Below, in pieces: positions 1-3,913 of a stretch of DNA of 3,913 bases. The notes beneath the pieces are model-generated. The model saw only the letters and a list, made by a program, of their open reading frames with translations, was not told the DNA's origin and ran no database searches. Every line of letters starts with the position of its first letter. The stretch's first letter is position 1. This stretch comes from a virus (Duplodnaviria; Heunggongvirae; Uroviricota; Caudoviricetes), in IMG/VR virus record IMGVR_UViG_2684622669_000022, positions 1 to 3,913 of that record; one strand, given 5' to 3'. Both the position numbers and the translations under genes were made by a program.

Positions 1-171
1 ATGCAACAGTTCGCTATTGCAGGGGCGGCATCGGTTCGCCCTTTCAACCCGATTTTATCGGTACAGCATTCACGAAAAAATATTTTAACCGGAGCAGACT
101 TTAAACAACCAAGAATGAAAAGTTTGCTCGAAAAGCTTTGGGATATTTTGAAACAACAAGGCCGTCCATGA
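1..171 (+). CDS. cIII: Small protein (56 aa), probable CIII-like lysogeny regulator (FtsH/HflB protease inhibitor family)
   Basis: Frame 1 is open from ATG at 1 to TGA at 169-171; it is absent from the ORF track only because it is below the size cut-off. Translation: MQQFAIAGAASVRPFNPILSVQHSRKNILTGADFKQPRMKSLLEKLWDILKQQGRP. The N-terminal MQxxAIAG and C-terminal SLLE...LxDILxQxGxP resemble lambda CIII as I recall it (MQYAIAG...ESLLERITRKLRDGWKRLIDILNQPGVP). Its position upstream of the recombination genes matches the lambda pL order. The window may truncate an upstream extension. Confidence 0.45.
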   Translation: MQQFAIAGAASVRPFNPILSVQHSRKNILTGADFKQPRMKSLLEKLWDILKQQGRP

Positions 172-338
172 GTTTTACAGATAACTGGTCAGACGAAGAA
201 TTCATTCGTCAGATGAAAGAATTAATCGGTAACGAAGGAGATATTCATGTCACTTGCAACCACAGTGAAGGAGAGCAAGTTACAGAGACGCATGTACACG
301 CAGCAGGCGTTAATGTATCGCCAGAAGGGAGATCGTGA
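168..338 (+). CDS. Hypothetical small protein (56 aa), in the position occupied by kil/gam in lambda
   Basis: ATG at 168 overlaps the upstream stop as ATGA (168-171), suggesting translational coupling. Open to TGA at 336-338. The ORF track starts it at an upstream TTG (138), which I consider less likely. No recognisable motif. Confidence 0.45.
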   Translation: MSFTDNWSDEEFIRQMKELIGNEGDIHVTCNHSEGEQVTETHVHAAGVNVSPEGRS

Positions 339-425
339 AGGTGTTCGCGTATTTTTAAATGCGGCAAAGACTGAAGTATTAAATCAGCGTTATTTCCTTG
401 GGCCATGTCCATTCTGAGGTGAATT

Positions 426-1133
426 ATGGATTTGAACAAATTCGATGAGCCATTCAGCCCTGAAGATATCGAATGGCGAATACAGCAAAGCGGTAAAACA
501 CGCGATGGCAAGGTGTGGGCTATGGTGCTGGCTTATGTCACGAACAGGGCAATCATGAAACGCCTGGACGATGTTTGCGGCAAAGCAGGATGGCGCAATG
601 AATACCGCGATATTCCCAACAACGGAGGCGTTGAATGCGGCATATCAATCAGGATTGATTCCGAATGGGTAACCAAATGGGATGCTGCTGAAAACACGCA
701 GGTAGAAGCCGTCAAAGGTGGTCGTTCCGGCGCAATGAAGCGCGCTGCCGTTCAGTGGGGAATCGGTCGGTATCTGTATAACCTTGAGGAAGGTTTCGCA
801 CAAACATCTCTCGATAAAAAGCAGGGGTGGCACAGGGCAAAACTGAAGGATGGAACAGGATTTTACTGGCTCCCTCCATCGCTGCCGGGATGGGCAATCC
901 CAGCATCAGATAACAAACCATCACCAGAAAATACCAACCAGAAATCTCCATCGGTTGACTGCGAACAAATCCTGAAAGACTTCAGCGATTATGCATCAAC
1001 AGAAACTGACAAGAAAAAACTCATCGAGCGTTATCAGCGTGACTGGCAATTAATGGCTGGCAACGAGGAGGCGCAGGCTAAATGCGTTCAGGTAATGAAC
1101 ATCAGAGTTAACGAACTAAAACAGGCGGCATAA
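426..1133 (+). CDS. Rad52-family (Sak-like) single-strand annealing recombinase
   Basis: 235-aa ORF with Shine-Dalgarno GAGGTG at 416-421. It contains the block AVKGGRSGAMKRAAVQWGIGRYLY, which matches the conserved KRAxxxFGxGxYLY signature of phage Rad52-like annealing proteins, and an upstream GxxGW motif. It sits directly before ssb, as is usual for phage recombination modules. Confidence 0.8.
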   Translation: MDLNKFDEPFSPEDIEWRIQQSGKTRDGKVWAMVLAYVTNRAIMKRLDDVCGKAGWRNEYRDIPNNGGVECGISIRIDSEWVTKWDAAENTQVEAVKGGRSGAMKRAAVQWGIGRYLYNLEEGFAQTSLDKKQGWHRAKLKDGTGFYWLPPSLPGWAIPASDNKPSPENTNQKSPSVDCEQILKDFSDYASTETDKKKLIERYQRDWQLMAGNEEAQAKCVQVMNIRVNELKQAA

Positions 1134-1640
1134 ATGGCAAGCAGAGGCGTAAATAAGGTGATTATCCTTGGTCGGGTAGGACAAGACCCGGAAGTTCGAT
1201 ACTCACCATCAGGAACAGCGTTCGCTAACCTGACAATAGCCACGTCAGAACAATGGCGAGATAAAAATACTGGCGAGCAAAAGGAATTGACTGAATGGCA
1301 TCGTGTTGCTGTATCCGGGAAACTGGCTGAGGTCGTGGGGCAGTATGTGAAAAAAGGTGATCAGATTTATTTCGAGGGAATGCTGAGAACCAGAAAGTGG
1401 AAAGACCAGTCAGGGCAAGACCGTTACACAACCGAGGTTCATGTCGGAATTAATGGCGTGATGCAAATGCTTGGCGGCATTGGCGACAGCAAACAACAAG
1501 CAGCCAGCAGGCAATCACAGAAGCCACAGCAGCAATCATCACCAGCACAACACAACGAACCTCCGATGGATTTTGACGACGATATACCCTTTGCACCAGT
1601 AACTCTCCCCTTCCCTCGTCACGCTATTCACGCAATTTAA
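1134..1640 (+). CDS. ssb: Single-stranded DNA-binding protein (phage SSB) with a 15-residue extension after the DDDIPF tip
   Basis: N-terminal OB-fold region ([23 protein letters not shown]...[15 protein letters not shown]...[19 protein letters not shown]...MQMLGG) is near-collinear with E. coli SSB. A short Q/S-rich linker is followed by [11 protein letters not shown]. The start ATG directly abuts the upstream TAA (1131-1133). Confidence 0.95.
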
Positions 1641-1642
1641 TC

Positions 1643-1647
1643 AGGAG
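1643..1647 (+). promoter_or_regulatory. Shine-Dalgarno (AGGAG) for the 1654 ORF
   Basis: AGGAG lies 6 nt upstream of ATG 1654. Confidence 0.6.
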
Positions 1648-1653
1648 AAAATC

Positions 1654-1950
1654 ATGCCAGCGCCTCTGTATGGTGCGGATGACCCGCGCCGCTGTTCCGG
1701 CAATTCCGTATCGGAGGTGCTGGATAAATTCAGAAAAAACTACGATCGAATAATGTCTCTACCGCAGGAAACGAAAGAGGAAAAGGAATTTCGCCACTGT
1801 ATATGGCTTGCAGAGAAAGAAGAACGCGAGCGAATTTACCAGACATCAATCCGACCATTCCGCAAAGCCACATATACCCACTTCCCTGAATATATCGACC
1901 CGCGCCTGCGTAATTACCGCTCACGCTATGGCGCTATCAGTAATGACTGA
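1654..1950 (+). CDS. Hypothetical prophage protein (98 aa)
   Basis: ATG start with a good Shine-Dalgarno. Lys/Glu/Arg-rich sequence with no motif I recognise. Co-oriented and tightly packed within the operon. Confidence 0.7.
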
Positions 1951-1960
1951 GGAATTTACC

Positions 1961-2125
1961 ATGAGAGGACTTGCATACAATCCCGGCATTCTTCCGGAAG
2001 AAATGATTATTCGCCAACGCGTAAAGCCAATGCCATCGAGAGAGGAATTGCTTAAGAGAAATTCTTCTCCGTCAGTGAATCAAAACAAATATCTGAATGC
2101 GATGTGGCGGAGTGGGAAGAAATGA
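1961..2125 (+). CDS. Hypothetical small protein (54 aa)
   Basis: ATG at 1961 is preceded by GAGGA (1949-1953) at 7-nt spacing. The ORF track extends this frame back to 1808, but that extension overlaps the 98-aa gene and has no ribosome-binding site. Its stop overlaps the next gene's ATG as ATGA (2122-2125). Confidence 0.5.
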
Positions 2126-2640
2126 AACGAATGACACTAATTGAGATGGATGGATTTCTGAAAGGTAAATGCATCTCATGTGATTTAAAGGTTAACGAAA
2201 CAAATGCTGAATATATGGTGCGTAAATTTGCTGAAGCTGAGGCCAAGTGCGCGGCGCTGGCAGCGGAGAATGCGGGGCTGAAGTCTGGCGCTATGGACGA
2301 AATCAAGGTTATCAACCGTGGAGGGCAGGCATATTGCGTAAAAGATGGAGTGCAAGTTAATCCCATGTATGCAAGAGGGTGGAATGACTATCGCGCAAAG
2401 TTTCTGCAATCAGACACCCCAGCCACCGATGCTTTCCTGGCTGAAGTACGAGCGCAGGGCGTGGATGCTGCTATAGAAGCTGCAAAAAATCTGGTGGCCC
2501 AAGAATATGAGTATAAGGATTTCAAAGCGGCGCAGAGTGATTGCTGTATGCACCCTGGTTCAGACCTGGTAGGGAAGGTTGAAATGACTGAGTGGTTAGT
2601 TGACTTTGCTTCCCAGCTTCGCAAAGGAGTGCGGTCATGA
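2122..2640 (+). CDS. Hypothetical prophage protein (172 aa, several Cys residues)
   Basis: ATG 2122 is preceded by GGAG (2109-2112). The ORF track begins at GTG 2104; I prefer ATG 2122 because of the ATGA overlap with the upstream stop. Contains CISC, YCVKDG and DCCMH; no family recognised. Confidence 0.7.
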
Positions 2641-3305
2641 GCAACATCGATAAACGCGCATTACGTCATAGCGCAGAAAGCATAATCGGCATTCTGGAAA
2701 ACATTGCCGGGTTCGAACCATCTGATATCGACGGCGACTCTGTAGAGCTCCGCTTTGAAACTGAGGACGGTTTCGATACTGGTTGTGACGTTAGCATTGT
2801 TGACCAGTGCCAGAAAACCGCTGATGTAGTTCGGGCGCTGCTGGATGAGCTGGAAAGAAACCAGCAATACATCAAACGCCGCGACCAGGAGAACGAGGAT
2901 ATTGCGCTAACGGTAGGGAAGCTGCGTGTTGAGCTGGAAGCCGCAGAGAACAACCTTATTGATAGTGAGTGCCATGTTGCTGAACTGGAAGAAGCGCTAC
3001 ACGATAAGCAGGCGTTACTTGAAGCATCAGAGAAGCGCATAGCAGAACTGGAAGCCGAACTTGTAAGCCAGACTTACAAGTTGAACGAGCTGTCGGGCAA
3101 CTCTCCGGTAACTCCGGATGGTTGGATAAGCTGTAGTGATCGAATGCCAAGCGAAGAAGATGTTTTGGTTTATTGCTCAGACACAAAAGAGCAGATGGTA
3201 GGGTTTCACAAAGGTAAAGGGTTATTTCAATTCTTTTACATGAATGGTGTTGAGGGGGTATGTGAGCCGTCACACTGGATGCCGCTACCAGAGCCTCCAC
3301 TTTGA
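2637..3305 (+). CDS. Ea22-like coiled-coil protein with a DUF551-like C-terminal domain
   Basis: ATG 2637 overlaps the upstream stop as ATGA and is preceded by AAGGAG (2624-2629). The protein has three parts: an N-terminal domain, a central Glu/Leu-rich heptad region (LDELERNQQ...AELEEALHDKQALLEASEKRIAELEAEL), and a C-terminal module ending in HWMPLPEPPL. That ending resembles the DUF551 tail of enterobacterial prophage Ead/Ea22-like proteins as I recall them. Confidence 0.75.
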   Translation: MSNIDKRALRHSAESIIGILENIAGFEPSDIDGDSVELRFETEDGFDTGCDVSIVDQCQKTADVVRALLDELERNQQYIKRRDQENEDIALTVGKLRVELEAAENNLIDSECHVAELEEALHDKQALLEASEKRIAELEAELVSQTYKLNELSGNSPVTPDGWISCSDRMPSEEDVLVYCSDTKEQMVGFHKGKGLFQFFYMNGVEGVCEPSHWMPLPEPPL

Positions 3306-3389
3306 AAGCGAAGCTTATACATATCTTTTACATCAGCAATCTATTGTTAATCTCCAATCAATGTTACGTTGTCATCTCACTCATGCTTT

Positions 3390-3394
3390 GGAGG
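3390..3394 (+). promoter_or_regulatory. Shine-Dalgarno (GGAGG) for the zinc-ribbon ORF
   Basis: GGAGG lies 7 nt upstream of ATG 3402; it is the best consensus match in the window. Confidence 0.65.
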
Positions 3395-3401
3395 TAGTGA
3401 T

Positions 3402-3581
3402 ATGTCTTGTCCAAAATGCGGTTCTGGAAATATTGCAAAAGAAAAAACAATGCGTGGATGGTCTGGTGATTATGTGTGCTGCGATTGCGGATACAACGAC
3501 TCTAAAGACGCATTTGGAGAGCGTGGTAAAAACGAGTTTGTTAAAATTAATAAAGAACGCGAAGGCAACGAAAAAAGCTAA
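3402..3581 (+). CDS. Small zinc-ribbon protein (59 aa; CPKC ... CCDC)
   Basis: MSCPKCGSGNIAKEKTMRGWSGDYVCCDCGY has two Cys pairs about 20 residues apart, followed by a Lys/Glu-rich tail. Strong Shine-Dalgarno. The ORF track starts it at TTG 3369, but ATG 3402 has the ribosome-binding site. It is the last gene before the terminator and xis, the position of ea8.5 in lambda. Confidence 0.7.
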   Translation: MSCPKCGSGNIAKEKTMRGWSGDYVCCDCGYNDSKDAFGERGKNEFVKINKEREGNEKS

Positions 3582-3645
3582 TTTATTTATTCATATATTA
3601 ATACAATGTAACCAATATTCGAATTGAAGAACTGAAAGAACACCA

Positions 3646-3668
3646 AGCCGCCTGATGGCGGTTTTTTA
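3646..3668 (+). terminator. Rho-independent terminator (GC stem, UGAU loop, T-tract)
   Basis: GCCGCC (3647-3652) pairs with GGCGG (3657-3661) around the loop TGAT, followed by six T residues (3662-3667). The reverse strand has no T-run after the hairpin, so it should act only on + strand transcripts. Confidence 0.6.
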
Positions 3669-3712
3669 TTGCCTGATTTGCAGGTTCGATTCCCTATTCG
3701 GAGATAGCACTC

Positions 3713-3913
3713 ATGCAACACGAACTACAACCTGATTCACTGGTTGATTTGAAATTCATCATGGCTGATACTGGCTTTGGTAAAACCTTCATCTATGACC
3801 GGATTAAGTCCGGAGACCTGCCTAAAGCTAAAGTTATCCACGGGCGAGCAAGATGGTTATATCGTGACCATTGTGAATTCAAAAATAAGCTCTTAAGCCG
3901 CGCCAATGGGTAA
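3713..3913 (+). CDS. xis: AlpA-family excisionase / phage DNA-binding regulator (Xis)
   Basis: 66-aa ORF with GGAGA (3700-3704) 8 nt upstream. LVDLKFIMADTGFGKTFIYDRIKSGDLPKAKVIHGRARWLYRDHCEF fits the AlpA/Vis-type winged-helix pattern. It lies at the distal end of the early-left operon, where xis precedes int in lambdoid phages. Confidence 0.8.
   Translation: MQHELQPDSLVDLKFIMADTGFGKTFIYDRIKSGDLPKAKVIHGRARWLYRDHCEFKNKLLSRANG

Follow-up and report, generated by a model that had tools for sequence, protein, structure and literature searches.

A conserved C-terminal tail beyond the acidic tip of a prophage single-stranded DNA-binding protein, and insertion of putative endonuclease genes at the tip/tail boundary in related phages

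The DNA analyzed here, hereafter the window, is the 3,913-nucleotide stretch at positions 1 to 3,913 of IMG/VR record IMGVR_UViG_2684622669_000022, from a virus of the class Caudoviricetes, and is part of the early-left operon of a lambdoid or P22-like prophage. Our subject is its ssb gene, encoding a bacterial-type single-stranded DNA (ssDNA)-binding protein (SSB), and in particular the 15 codons by which the reading frame continues beyond the DDDIPF tip. The gene and its parts are listed below in window coordinates; OB-fold denotes the oligonucleotide/oligosaccharide-binding fold, AF2 denotes AlphaFold2, and pLDDT its predicted local distance difference test score.

1134..1640, plus strand: ssb, 168 amino acids (aa), bacterial-type SSB of a lambdoid/P22-like prophage early-left (PL) operon
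1149..1475, plus strand: OB-fold ssDNA-binding domain, about residues 6-114 (Pfam match 6-104; AF2 strands 8-114, pLDDT 72-88)
1476..1559, plus strand: Gln/Pro-rich disordered linker, about residues 115-142 (from composition, and AF2 pLDDT <50 from residue 114)
1560..1592, plus strand: acidic tip, residues 143-153, identical to the Escherichia coli SSB C-terminus and internal here
1565..1589, plus strand: 25-nt substitution patch, a candidate homing or recognition site and co-conversion tract beside the insertion point named in the next line
1592..1593, plus strand: Phe/Ala codon boundary, the insertion point of free-standing putative HNH endonuclease genes in relatives, unoccupied in the window
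1593..1637, plus strand: post-tip tail, residues 154-168, 15 codons, a conserved short linear motif of the Enterobacterales class
1638..1640, plus strand: TAA stop of ssb, with a mosaic boundary to the downstream module directly after it

The product of this open reading frame (ORF) matched PF00436 over residues 6-104 in a Pfam search (E 1.6e-36) and scored over the cut-off of the TIGR00621 profile (E 4.5e-49), and the gene is annotated as ssb in phages HK75 and epsilon34 and in E. coli RefSeq genomes. An AF2 prediction of the monomer gave a five-strand OB domain with a helix at residues 63-71, while residues 114-168 had pLDDT <50 and are predicted to be disordered. The protein thus has both an OB-fold domain and a disordered linker leading to a D-F-D-D-D-I-P-F tip, the same sequence as that found at the C-termini of the solved SSB chains 7f2n and 1eqq. 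The tip is not terminal, however: the Phe153 codon (TTT, 1590-1592) is followed by GCA (1593-1595) and then CCA GTA, and with 15 residues after Phe153 the protein has no free Phe alpha-carboxylate there. Direct reading confirmed the preliminary description in that the frame runs 15 codons past the DDDIPF Phe to TAA at 1638-1640 and that no fewer than two substitutions would turn GCA into a stop. The full-length TIGR00621 ssb profile stops exactly at residue 153, leaving the 15 residues outside any SSB model, and a search for a solved structure containing the tail found it in none of the PDB chains.

The extension recurs among phages and bacterial genomes. A 567-base segment comprising ssb and the start of abc2 was 99-100% identical in phages HK75, mEp235, and mEpX2, and matches covering at least 80% of it as a query were present in 304 of the 5426 complete genomes of E. 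coli; the same 168-aa protein is encoded, at 89% nucleotide identity, by the Salmonella phages epsilon34 and g341c. When 5.8 billion proteins were searched, about 110 of the top 120 homologue clusters carried a tail of exactly 15 residues after DDDIPF, the hosts being Klebsiella, Citrobacter, Enterobacter, Salmonella, Kluyvera, Pluralibacter, and Phytobacter. SSB bodies in the tailed clusters were 66-100% identical to that of the window, tail length was kept even at 66-75% identity, and homologues showed conservative tail substitutions, e.g., SPVGLQYGKHRVYAL, APVGLPYPRHCIYLI, and APIGLQFSRHSIHAI. Alignment to other prophage SSBs, the check proposed in the preliminary description, shows that the extension is not the private oddity it was taken for there; together with the surveys and the selection test below, the homologue clusters point instead to a conserved, selected, and portable module. 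That a recent single-base nonsense reversion is unlikely, as also argued there, is borne out by the same ORF in independent phages and in distant homologues.

A degenerate DNA scan of IMG/VR for F-D-D-D-I-P-F-[AS]-P, a pattern that itself fixes the first two tail residues, returned 190 ORFs. Class 1 tails among them have 15 residues and the consensus AP[VI][TG]L[PQM][FY]P[RS]H.I..[ILV] ahead of the stop codon, and class 2 tails have 9 residues and the consensus AP[LM]H[HY]L[AN]G[AG]. An unconstrained scan of viral contigs for FDDDIPF, an unbiased sample, yielded 80 sites, with a stop directly after the Phe at 57, an AP or SP tail at 17, and another short extension at 6, so that 23 of the 80 tips (29%) are internal. 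The earlier premise of a terminal DDDIPF in most phage SSBs is true of about 71% of this sample and fails for the remaining 29% or so. A ...G[AG]GVSWRAM type was recurrent among the six other extensions. More widely, a 15-residue extension ending in ...G[AG]GVSW[RS]AM was seen in Gallionella and in metagenomes (L226, L249, L268, L319, and L337) and a 5-residue APE[VFH]R extension in alphaproteobacteria (L338, L364, L400, and L415), while L254 represents a single case in which FDDDIPF is followed by AFAFATPLGSILAGLVLAGLVIAA and a stop, an extension that is transmembrane-segment-like.

The combination of tip and tail was found on several scaffolds, which were defined by Pfam and PHROGs, single-linkage clustering having merged all of them via the shared C-terminus. 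These are classical SSBs, two divergent PF00436 groups (beginning MAINTITISG... and MPTLTDIGRIG...), phrog_743 SSBs, a gp2.5-like SSB, and proteins of unknown function that include gp39 of Salmonella phage PVP-SE1. The last of these (L115), L187, and L203 end in FDDDIPF plus a class-1-like tail (APIGLQYGRNFIHCI, APIGLQEGRLFLHMI); L203 is the gp2.5-like SSB, and this set includes proteins without a recognizable OB-fold SSB (phrog_4477, phrog_2544, unknown function). The tip-tail module may recruit non-SSB proteins too. Lying outside all SSB profiles, the post-tip tail matters for annotation.

Across species-representative genomes of bacteria, tail class goes with host clade and not with scaffold, as listed here.

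Enterobacterales: the tail class of this window
Pseudomonas: APLHHLAGA on two unrelated scaffolds, plus APISRLLLNII
Vibrio, Pseudoalteromonas, and Oceanisphaera: AP[IL]GLQ[YF]PALL..M
Pasteurellaceae: APVHHSHSKITIYSI
Alphaproteobacteria: APE[VFHW]R

Selection on the tail beyond its initial AP was estimated from minimum spanning trees of distinct DNA haplotypes, 50 of class 1 and 37 of class 2. For class 1, 105.5 synonymous changes over 10.1 sites and 92.5 nonsynonymous changes over 28.9 sites gave an approximate in-frame ratio of 0.31 (binomial P 1.5e-16), compared to 1.24 and 2.15 in the two wrong frames. For class 2, the corresponding counts were 64.2 over 5.6 sites and 50.8 over 15.4 sites, an approximate ratio of 0.29 (binomial P 4e-11), with 1.52 and 2.29 in the wrong frames. 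On these estimates the tail is under purifying selection at the protein level, and it is the peptide that is conserved and not the DNA, since synonymous sites are heavily turned over. In alignment A1 of tailed proteins, F147, P152, and F153 of the tip are invariant and D148-I151 are at least 90% conserved, and P155 and L158 of the tail are likewise invariant; conserved tail positions run along its whole length (P2, L5, P8, R9, H10, and I12). Within 3.27 Mb of phage DNA (416 loci), tail motifs were found at 165 distinct C-termini, all directly after an acidic tip, the sole exceptions being inserted endonuclease (HNH) ORFs. Altogether, the comparisons show a real, old, selected, and portable module coupled to the tip. 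Clustering of neighboring genes revealed no family common to tail-bearing loci, and a dedicated phage partner encoded next door was rejected on this ground. One locus of a Rheinheimera metagenome-assembled genome (L327, 5680-6330) has two tip-and-tail copies; this was considered as an endonuclease insertion and rejected, being a tandem duplication of about 548 nt that holds the ssb 3' end together with a gene downstream of it, of 129 aa and with an N-terminus resembling a signal peptide, and that leaves an orphan second copy of tip and tail.

In relatives of the window, a further gene interrupts ssb at exactly the codon boundary between tip and tail, a circumstance on which the preliminary description was silent. 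In phages Sf6, IME10, and Bas106, ssb ends in ...NFDDSDIPF and a stop, and 9 nt on lies a 159-aa ORF (Sf6 gp26, annotated 'endonuclease') that ends in the tail sequence of the window. Here and at L063-65 and L083-86 the order is ...IPF and a stop, a spacer of 9-16 nt, and an HNH ORF ending in ...KPIYPDE[E/A] plus the tail; several endonuclease ORFs share all 15 tail residues, with the junction exactly between the Phe and Ala codons. Across the window and 89 fetched loci the rule is without exception: wherever ssb stops after ...IPF, an endonuclease gene begins 9-16 nt farther on, and, conversely, each ssb without an endonuclease gene bears the tail.

Closely related alleles reveal what accompanies the insertion. 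At L063-65, where the ssb body is 99-100% identical to that of the window, a second endonuclease lineage, 43% identical to gp26, occupies the same point. Compared to the window, L063 differs at 1 site over the first 431 nt of ssb and then at 8 sites within the 25 nt from 1565 to 1589 (positions 1565, 1569, 1571, 1574, 1580, 1583, 1586, and 1589), by which the tip becomes PMNFDDEIPF followed by a stop; downstream of the insert, the tail and abc2 of L063-65 are again about 99% identical to the window. The same 8-substitution patch occurs at L087 with a third, unrelated endonuclease-like ORF. This ORF (...HLCDNPSCVNPEHL..., about 126 aa) lies in the roughly 630 nt between the ssb stop (after ...NFDDEIPF) and an abc2-like gene, and at this locus the tail codons are wholly absent.

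The Sf6 gp26-type insert thus shows both presence/absence at one site and an altered flank in the occupied allele. Decay products were also found: a 200-nt remnant of the endonuclease gene in phiKp_30 (L005 2351-2554), chimeras joining an SSB N-terminus to an HNH C-terminus (P0131 and P0134), and chimeras joining an HNH N-terminus to the C-terminus of a 3'-5' exonuclease (P0144, P0173, P0180, and P0183). A fixed site, an altered flank, and decay products are the pattern expected of free-standing homing endonuclease genes. The endonuclease family had no match in Pfam, NCBIfam, or PDB sequence-profile searches, while it matched PHROG phrog_2340, 'endonuclease', with E 2.6e-47; its alignment has an invariant C..C / HH / C..H..H pattern, and an AF2 model with pLDDT 94 gave weak HNH matches in fold searches. 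The assignment of the gp26-type ORF as a nuclease is moderately supported. Of the 5426 complete E. coli genomes, 99 carry the gene (Sf6 gp26, L004 1984-2463; E. coli hits H121-H128), and RefSeq/PGAP lists no feature under it, leaving a confidently folding protein systematically unannotated. At the 3' end of the L085 HNH gene (...GCACCTGTAACTTTCCCC...), the otherwise invariant Leu at tail position 5 is Phe (APVTFPFPRH...), a single case that hints at possibly relaxed constraint on a tail detached from SSB.

Which protein owned the tail first can be addressed from the endonuclease side. The core of the HNH family ends in ...WHKxNKPIY, after which most members finish with short unrelated sequences, and read-through into the tail is limited to HNH copies at this ssb boundary, including the two lineages that are 43% identical. 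In the AF2 model of the endonuclease, pLDDT is 97-98 to about residue 140, then 79, and then 54 across the tail. Where a gp26-family gene follows a complete tailed ssb (L317 and Sodalis) or an ssb ending in ...DDDIPFN and a stop (L292), it has its own unrelated C-terminus, and both the diversity and the distribution of the tail are far greater on SSBs than on endonucleases. From the end of the HNH core, the disordered tail in the model, the separate C-termini elsewhere, and the diversity on SSBs, the comparison shows the uninterrupted tailed ssb of the window to be the ancestral form, and the Sf6-type SSB that ends in ...DIPF the derived one. Insertion of the HNH gene at the Phe/Ala boundary gives ssb a stop, and the endonuclease ORF runs out through the displaced tail codons. 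P22 Abc1, whose position ssb occupies, was considered as the source of the tail and rejected, because similarity to P22 begins at 1644, after the ssb stop.

The SSB C-terminal tip is among the best-characterized protein-recruitment signals in bacteria, and textbook structures say that it must be terminal. In partner proteins, the terminal Phe enters a hydrophobic pocket, its alpha-carboxyl group is anchored by a basic lip, and the Asp residues face a basic ridge; deletion of the terminal Phe abolishes binding and is lethal (PMC10164576; PMC5872125). With Phe153 internal, as the preliminary description also argued, a peptide bond would replace the alpha-carboxylate that the basic lip of ExoI, RecQ, PriA, chi, RecG, or DnaG anchors; generic partners would then bind poorly, and the phage SSB would be uncoupled from the general host SSB interactome. 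Mixed tetramers with the host SSB and a shielding of phage ssDNA from nucleases, both raised in the preliminary description, are speculative. A pure cap needs no conserved sequence, so the strict conservation of both tip and tail suggests that the tip is still in use and that the tail has a specific partner. As the most economical reading, we infer that tip and conserved tail together form a two-part ligand with altered specificity for one particular partner, to which the tail would add a host-specific contact. A host protein is a likelier partner than one encoded by the phage, judging from a tail class that follows the host clade and the lack of a constant phage neighbor gene. In annealase- and Abc2-driven recombination and in replication, ssDNA coated by the phage SSB would in this way be marked apart from ssDNA coated by host SSB. 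We give about even chances to the overall interpretation that the 15 post-tip codons specify a short linear motif that functions at the C-terminus, belongs to a widespread family of phage SSB tails, and is ancestral at this locus.

Several points weigh against this interpretation. In the viable phages Sf6, IME10, and Bas106 the tail is no longer part of SSB, and a tail without which Sf6-type phages live is not essential. The pocket for the SSB tip can take an internal Phe, as in the complex of Red-beta with lambda Exo Phe94 (PMC6393309), and the loss of host-partner binding may be incomplete if some pockets accept one. The presence of two different tail classes in Pseudomonas weakens a model with a single host partner, and the tracking of host clades could come, at least partly, from recombination among phages sharing a host. 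The [AS]-P after Phe was imposed by construction in the degenerate scan, and, with synonymous sites saturated and a rough spanning-tree method, the selection ratios above are approximations. Finally, both the capping and the two-part ligand are mechanisms that we infer.

Among the alternatives, a role in turnover or masking, although disfavored and in our estimate unlikely, survives best. The apolar C-terminus could be a degron for a host AAA+ or tail-specific protease that would shorten the life of the phage SSB, or the tail could be a pro-peptide whose removal unmasks a DDDIPF carboxyl terminus. The major tail classes do end in small or hydrophobic residues (...HAIHAI, ...ALLLAM, ...LLLNII, and ...HLAGA), always at the extreme C-terminus, and presumably resemble the ssrA (...LAA) and MuA (...RRKKAI) signals for ClpX; the tail also lies in a disordered region, and strict conservation of the tip would be sensible if the tip were later exposed. 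A transferable degron should occur as an autonomous signal, however, and in the 3.27 Mb surveyed the tails were never on other phage proteins, only after an SSB tip or on the HNH ORFs there. In addition, conservation spans the whole tail and not just the last 3-5 residues, the APE[VF]R tails of alphaproteobacteria lack apolar character, and no known protease site is evident at the Phe-Ala junction.

Docking to a known hub such as the beta sliding clamp, or to the phage's own annealase or Abc2, is a somewhat less probable alternative. In the class 1 pattern P-[VI]-[TG]-L-x-[FY], hydrophobic residues are spaced as in the clamp-binding consensus, and PVTLPF resembles hexapeptides of the Hda/Pol IV type (QLSLPL/QLVLGL). 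The signature Gln is absent, however, with Pro in its place in class 1, and the class 2 (APLHHLAGA) and class 4 (APISRLLLNII) tails fall outside the spacing pattern; none of these tails has the clamp-binding motif QL[SD]LF or QLxLxL. Docking to the annealase has a precedent, since phage SSB tips recruit cognate annealases (PMC5928155). At tail-bearing loci, though, the neighboring recombinase varies (Rad52-like, Sak4-like, and others) and no neighbor is constant.

Two further alternatives are highly improbable. In the first, the conserved thing is DNA or RNA, such as a homing recognition site, a mosaic 'boundary sequence', or a translational-coupling element, through which the ORF merely reads. 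The region is indeed both a mosaic junction and an endonuclease insertion site, and many phages of E. coli and Salmonella have near-identical tail DNA despite differences of 11-25% in the body of ssb. A nucleic acid element as the main reason for conservation is nevertheless refuted by the in-frame selection signal and the synonymous turnover, with about 100 synonymous changes over about 10 sites while amino acids are kept and the signal is confined to the ssb frame; moreover, the ribosome-binding sites of abc2 and of the exonuclease gene described below lie after the stop codon. The second, which was the initial hypothesis, is a neutral scar: the tail would originally have been that of the HNH protein, an in-frame deletion having fused its last 14-15 codons to ssb as tolerated junk. 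It is attractive in that the tail is identical to the C-termini of Sf6 gp26 and Bas106_0032 and that the endonuclease gene does decay by deletion, as the phiKp_30 remnant and the chimeras attest. It was rejected after the surveys, the selection tests, the HNH model, and the finding of separate C-termini elsewhere: the tail shows purifying selection when read in the SSB frame, is far more diverse and more widespread on SSBs, occurs on unrelated scaffolds and in host clades without such an HNH gene nearby, and lies outside the predicted HNH fold, and HNH relatives elsewhere end in unrelated short sequences after ...KPIY. A sequencing or assembly error, which the preliminary description had thought possible, or a recent stop-codon loss private to this genome rests solely on the prior expectation of a terminal DDDIPF and has next to no probability, being refuted by the same ORF, 99-100% identical, in many independent phage and bacterial assemblies.

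The window SSB can be set beside several known systems. It shares with the homotetrameric E. coli-type SSB (PF00436/TIGR00621) the OB fold, the disordered Gln/Pro-rich linker, and an identical tip sequence, and differs in having the tip internal, with 15 conserved residues after the Phe and no anchoring carboxylate there (PMC10164576). The SSBs of Sf6, IME10, and Bas106 have the same annealase-ssb-abc2 position, an OB domain about 77% identical, and the tail codons in the locus, but those codons belong to their endonuclease ORF and the SSB ends canonically, whereas the window gene is uninterrupted. In HK620, another temperate phage with an SSB beside its own annealase, the C-terminal NDYPPF is needed to stimulate the cognate annealase Sak4 (Hutinet et al. 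2018, PMC5928155), which indicates that phage SSB tips are functional docking elements; unlike in the window, the HK620 tip is terminal with no post-tip tail described, and the annealase is Sak4 rather than Rad52-like. The acidic tail of T7 gp2.5 docks partners through its C-terminal Phe232, and deletion of this Phe is reported to abolish polymerase interaction (summary in bioRxiv 10.64898/2026.02.22.705581); the gp2.5 fold is unrelated, yet the gp2.5-like L203 bears FDDDIPF and a class-1-like tail.

For the inserted gene, the relevant precedents are free-standing phage HNH homing endonucleases such as T4 mobE (PMC2790892) and nuclease genes at exchange boundaries (PMC10448857). The gp26-type insert resembles them in its fixed-site presence/absence in near-identical alleles, the adjoining substitution patch, and the decay products, and departs from them in lying inside a coding sequence, truncating ssb to a functional canonical form, and borrowing its 3' codons. 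It thereby offers a tidy example of a putative homing endonuclease gene that enters a coding sequence without destroying the gene.

On either side of ssb in the window lie two genes of the same operon.

426..1133, plus strand: Rad52-like (PHROG 'Erf-like') single-strand annealing protein (PF04098, E 7e-26; phrog_1097, E 6.5e-130)
1654..1950, plus strand: abc2, anti-RecBCD protein 2 (PF11043, E 4e-62), 13 nt downstream of ssb

The annealase stop abuts the ssb ATG, and Abc2 is annotated in HK75, Sf6, and epsilon34. After the ssb stop, otherwise identical loci have either the abc2 spacer (TCAGGAGAAAATC ATG) or a DnaQ-like exonuclease cassette (GGACTTAC ATG). This 549-nt cassette for a 3'-5' exonuclease, present or absent between ssb and abc2 with its boundary at window position 1641 (compared in L002 3508-4079 and in L013/L014), is a second presence/absence polymorphism at the same spot. 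Farther downstream, a 178-aa ORF (2104-2640) between a small HK97 gp38-like ORF and an Ead/Ea22 gene had no Pfam or NCBIfam match, and in the single ORF at 2637-3305 a coiled-coil N-terminus of the Ead/Ea22 type is joined to a DUF551 domain at the C-terminus. At 3402-3581 lies a gene for a 59-aa Lar-like zinc-ribbon protein, whose match falls short of the Pfam cut-off, and after this gene comes a strong intrinsic-terminator-like hairpin at 3645-3664 (AAGCCGCC-TGAT-GGCGGTTT plus a T-run). The small protein encoded from 3713 to the window end at 3913 has a weak HTH_17 match (E 0.008, below the Pfam cut-off) and is possibly excisionase-like. Over positions 1-3913 there was 1 sigma-70-like promoter match, against 5.1 ± 2.4 expected from shuffles, a scarcity that fits a position inside a long operon whose transcription starts at a PL promoter farther upstream.

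No description of post-tip tails was found in the searchable literature, which covers few subscription journals, and the Hna and DARNA papers on phage SSBs make no mention of an extension. The 2004 GenBank note for Sf6 records '14 contiguous amino acids identical to E. coli SSB'.

More generally, and as a possibility that we hold only tentatively, post-tip tails may act as a host-clade 'address label' that turns a promiscuous, carboxylate-dependent tip into a selective two-part ligand, with HNH endonuclease genes exploiting the boundary. If so, ssDNA bound by phage SSB would be handled apart from that of the host, recruiting or blocking one host factor or escaping SSB-sensing immunity; the tip/tail boundary would be a safe landing site for endonuclease genes, insertion leaving a working canonical SSB; and about a quarter of phage DDDIPF-type SSBs would take part in an undescribed layer of phage-host conflict at the SSB hub. 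It appears that phages alter what is, in bacterial DNA metabolism, the best-known signal for recruiting proteins, which raises the question of how they keep their ssDNA transactions apart from the SSB interactome of the host, or redirect that interactome. The answer bears on recombineering, in which annealase-SSB compatibility depends on the tip, and on the growing list of defense systems triggered by phage SSBs.

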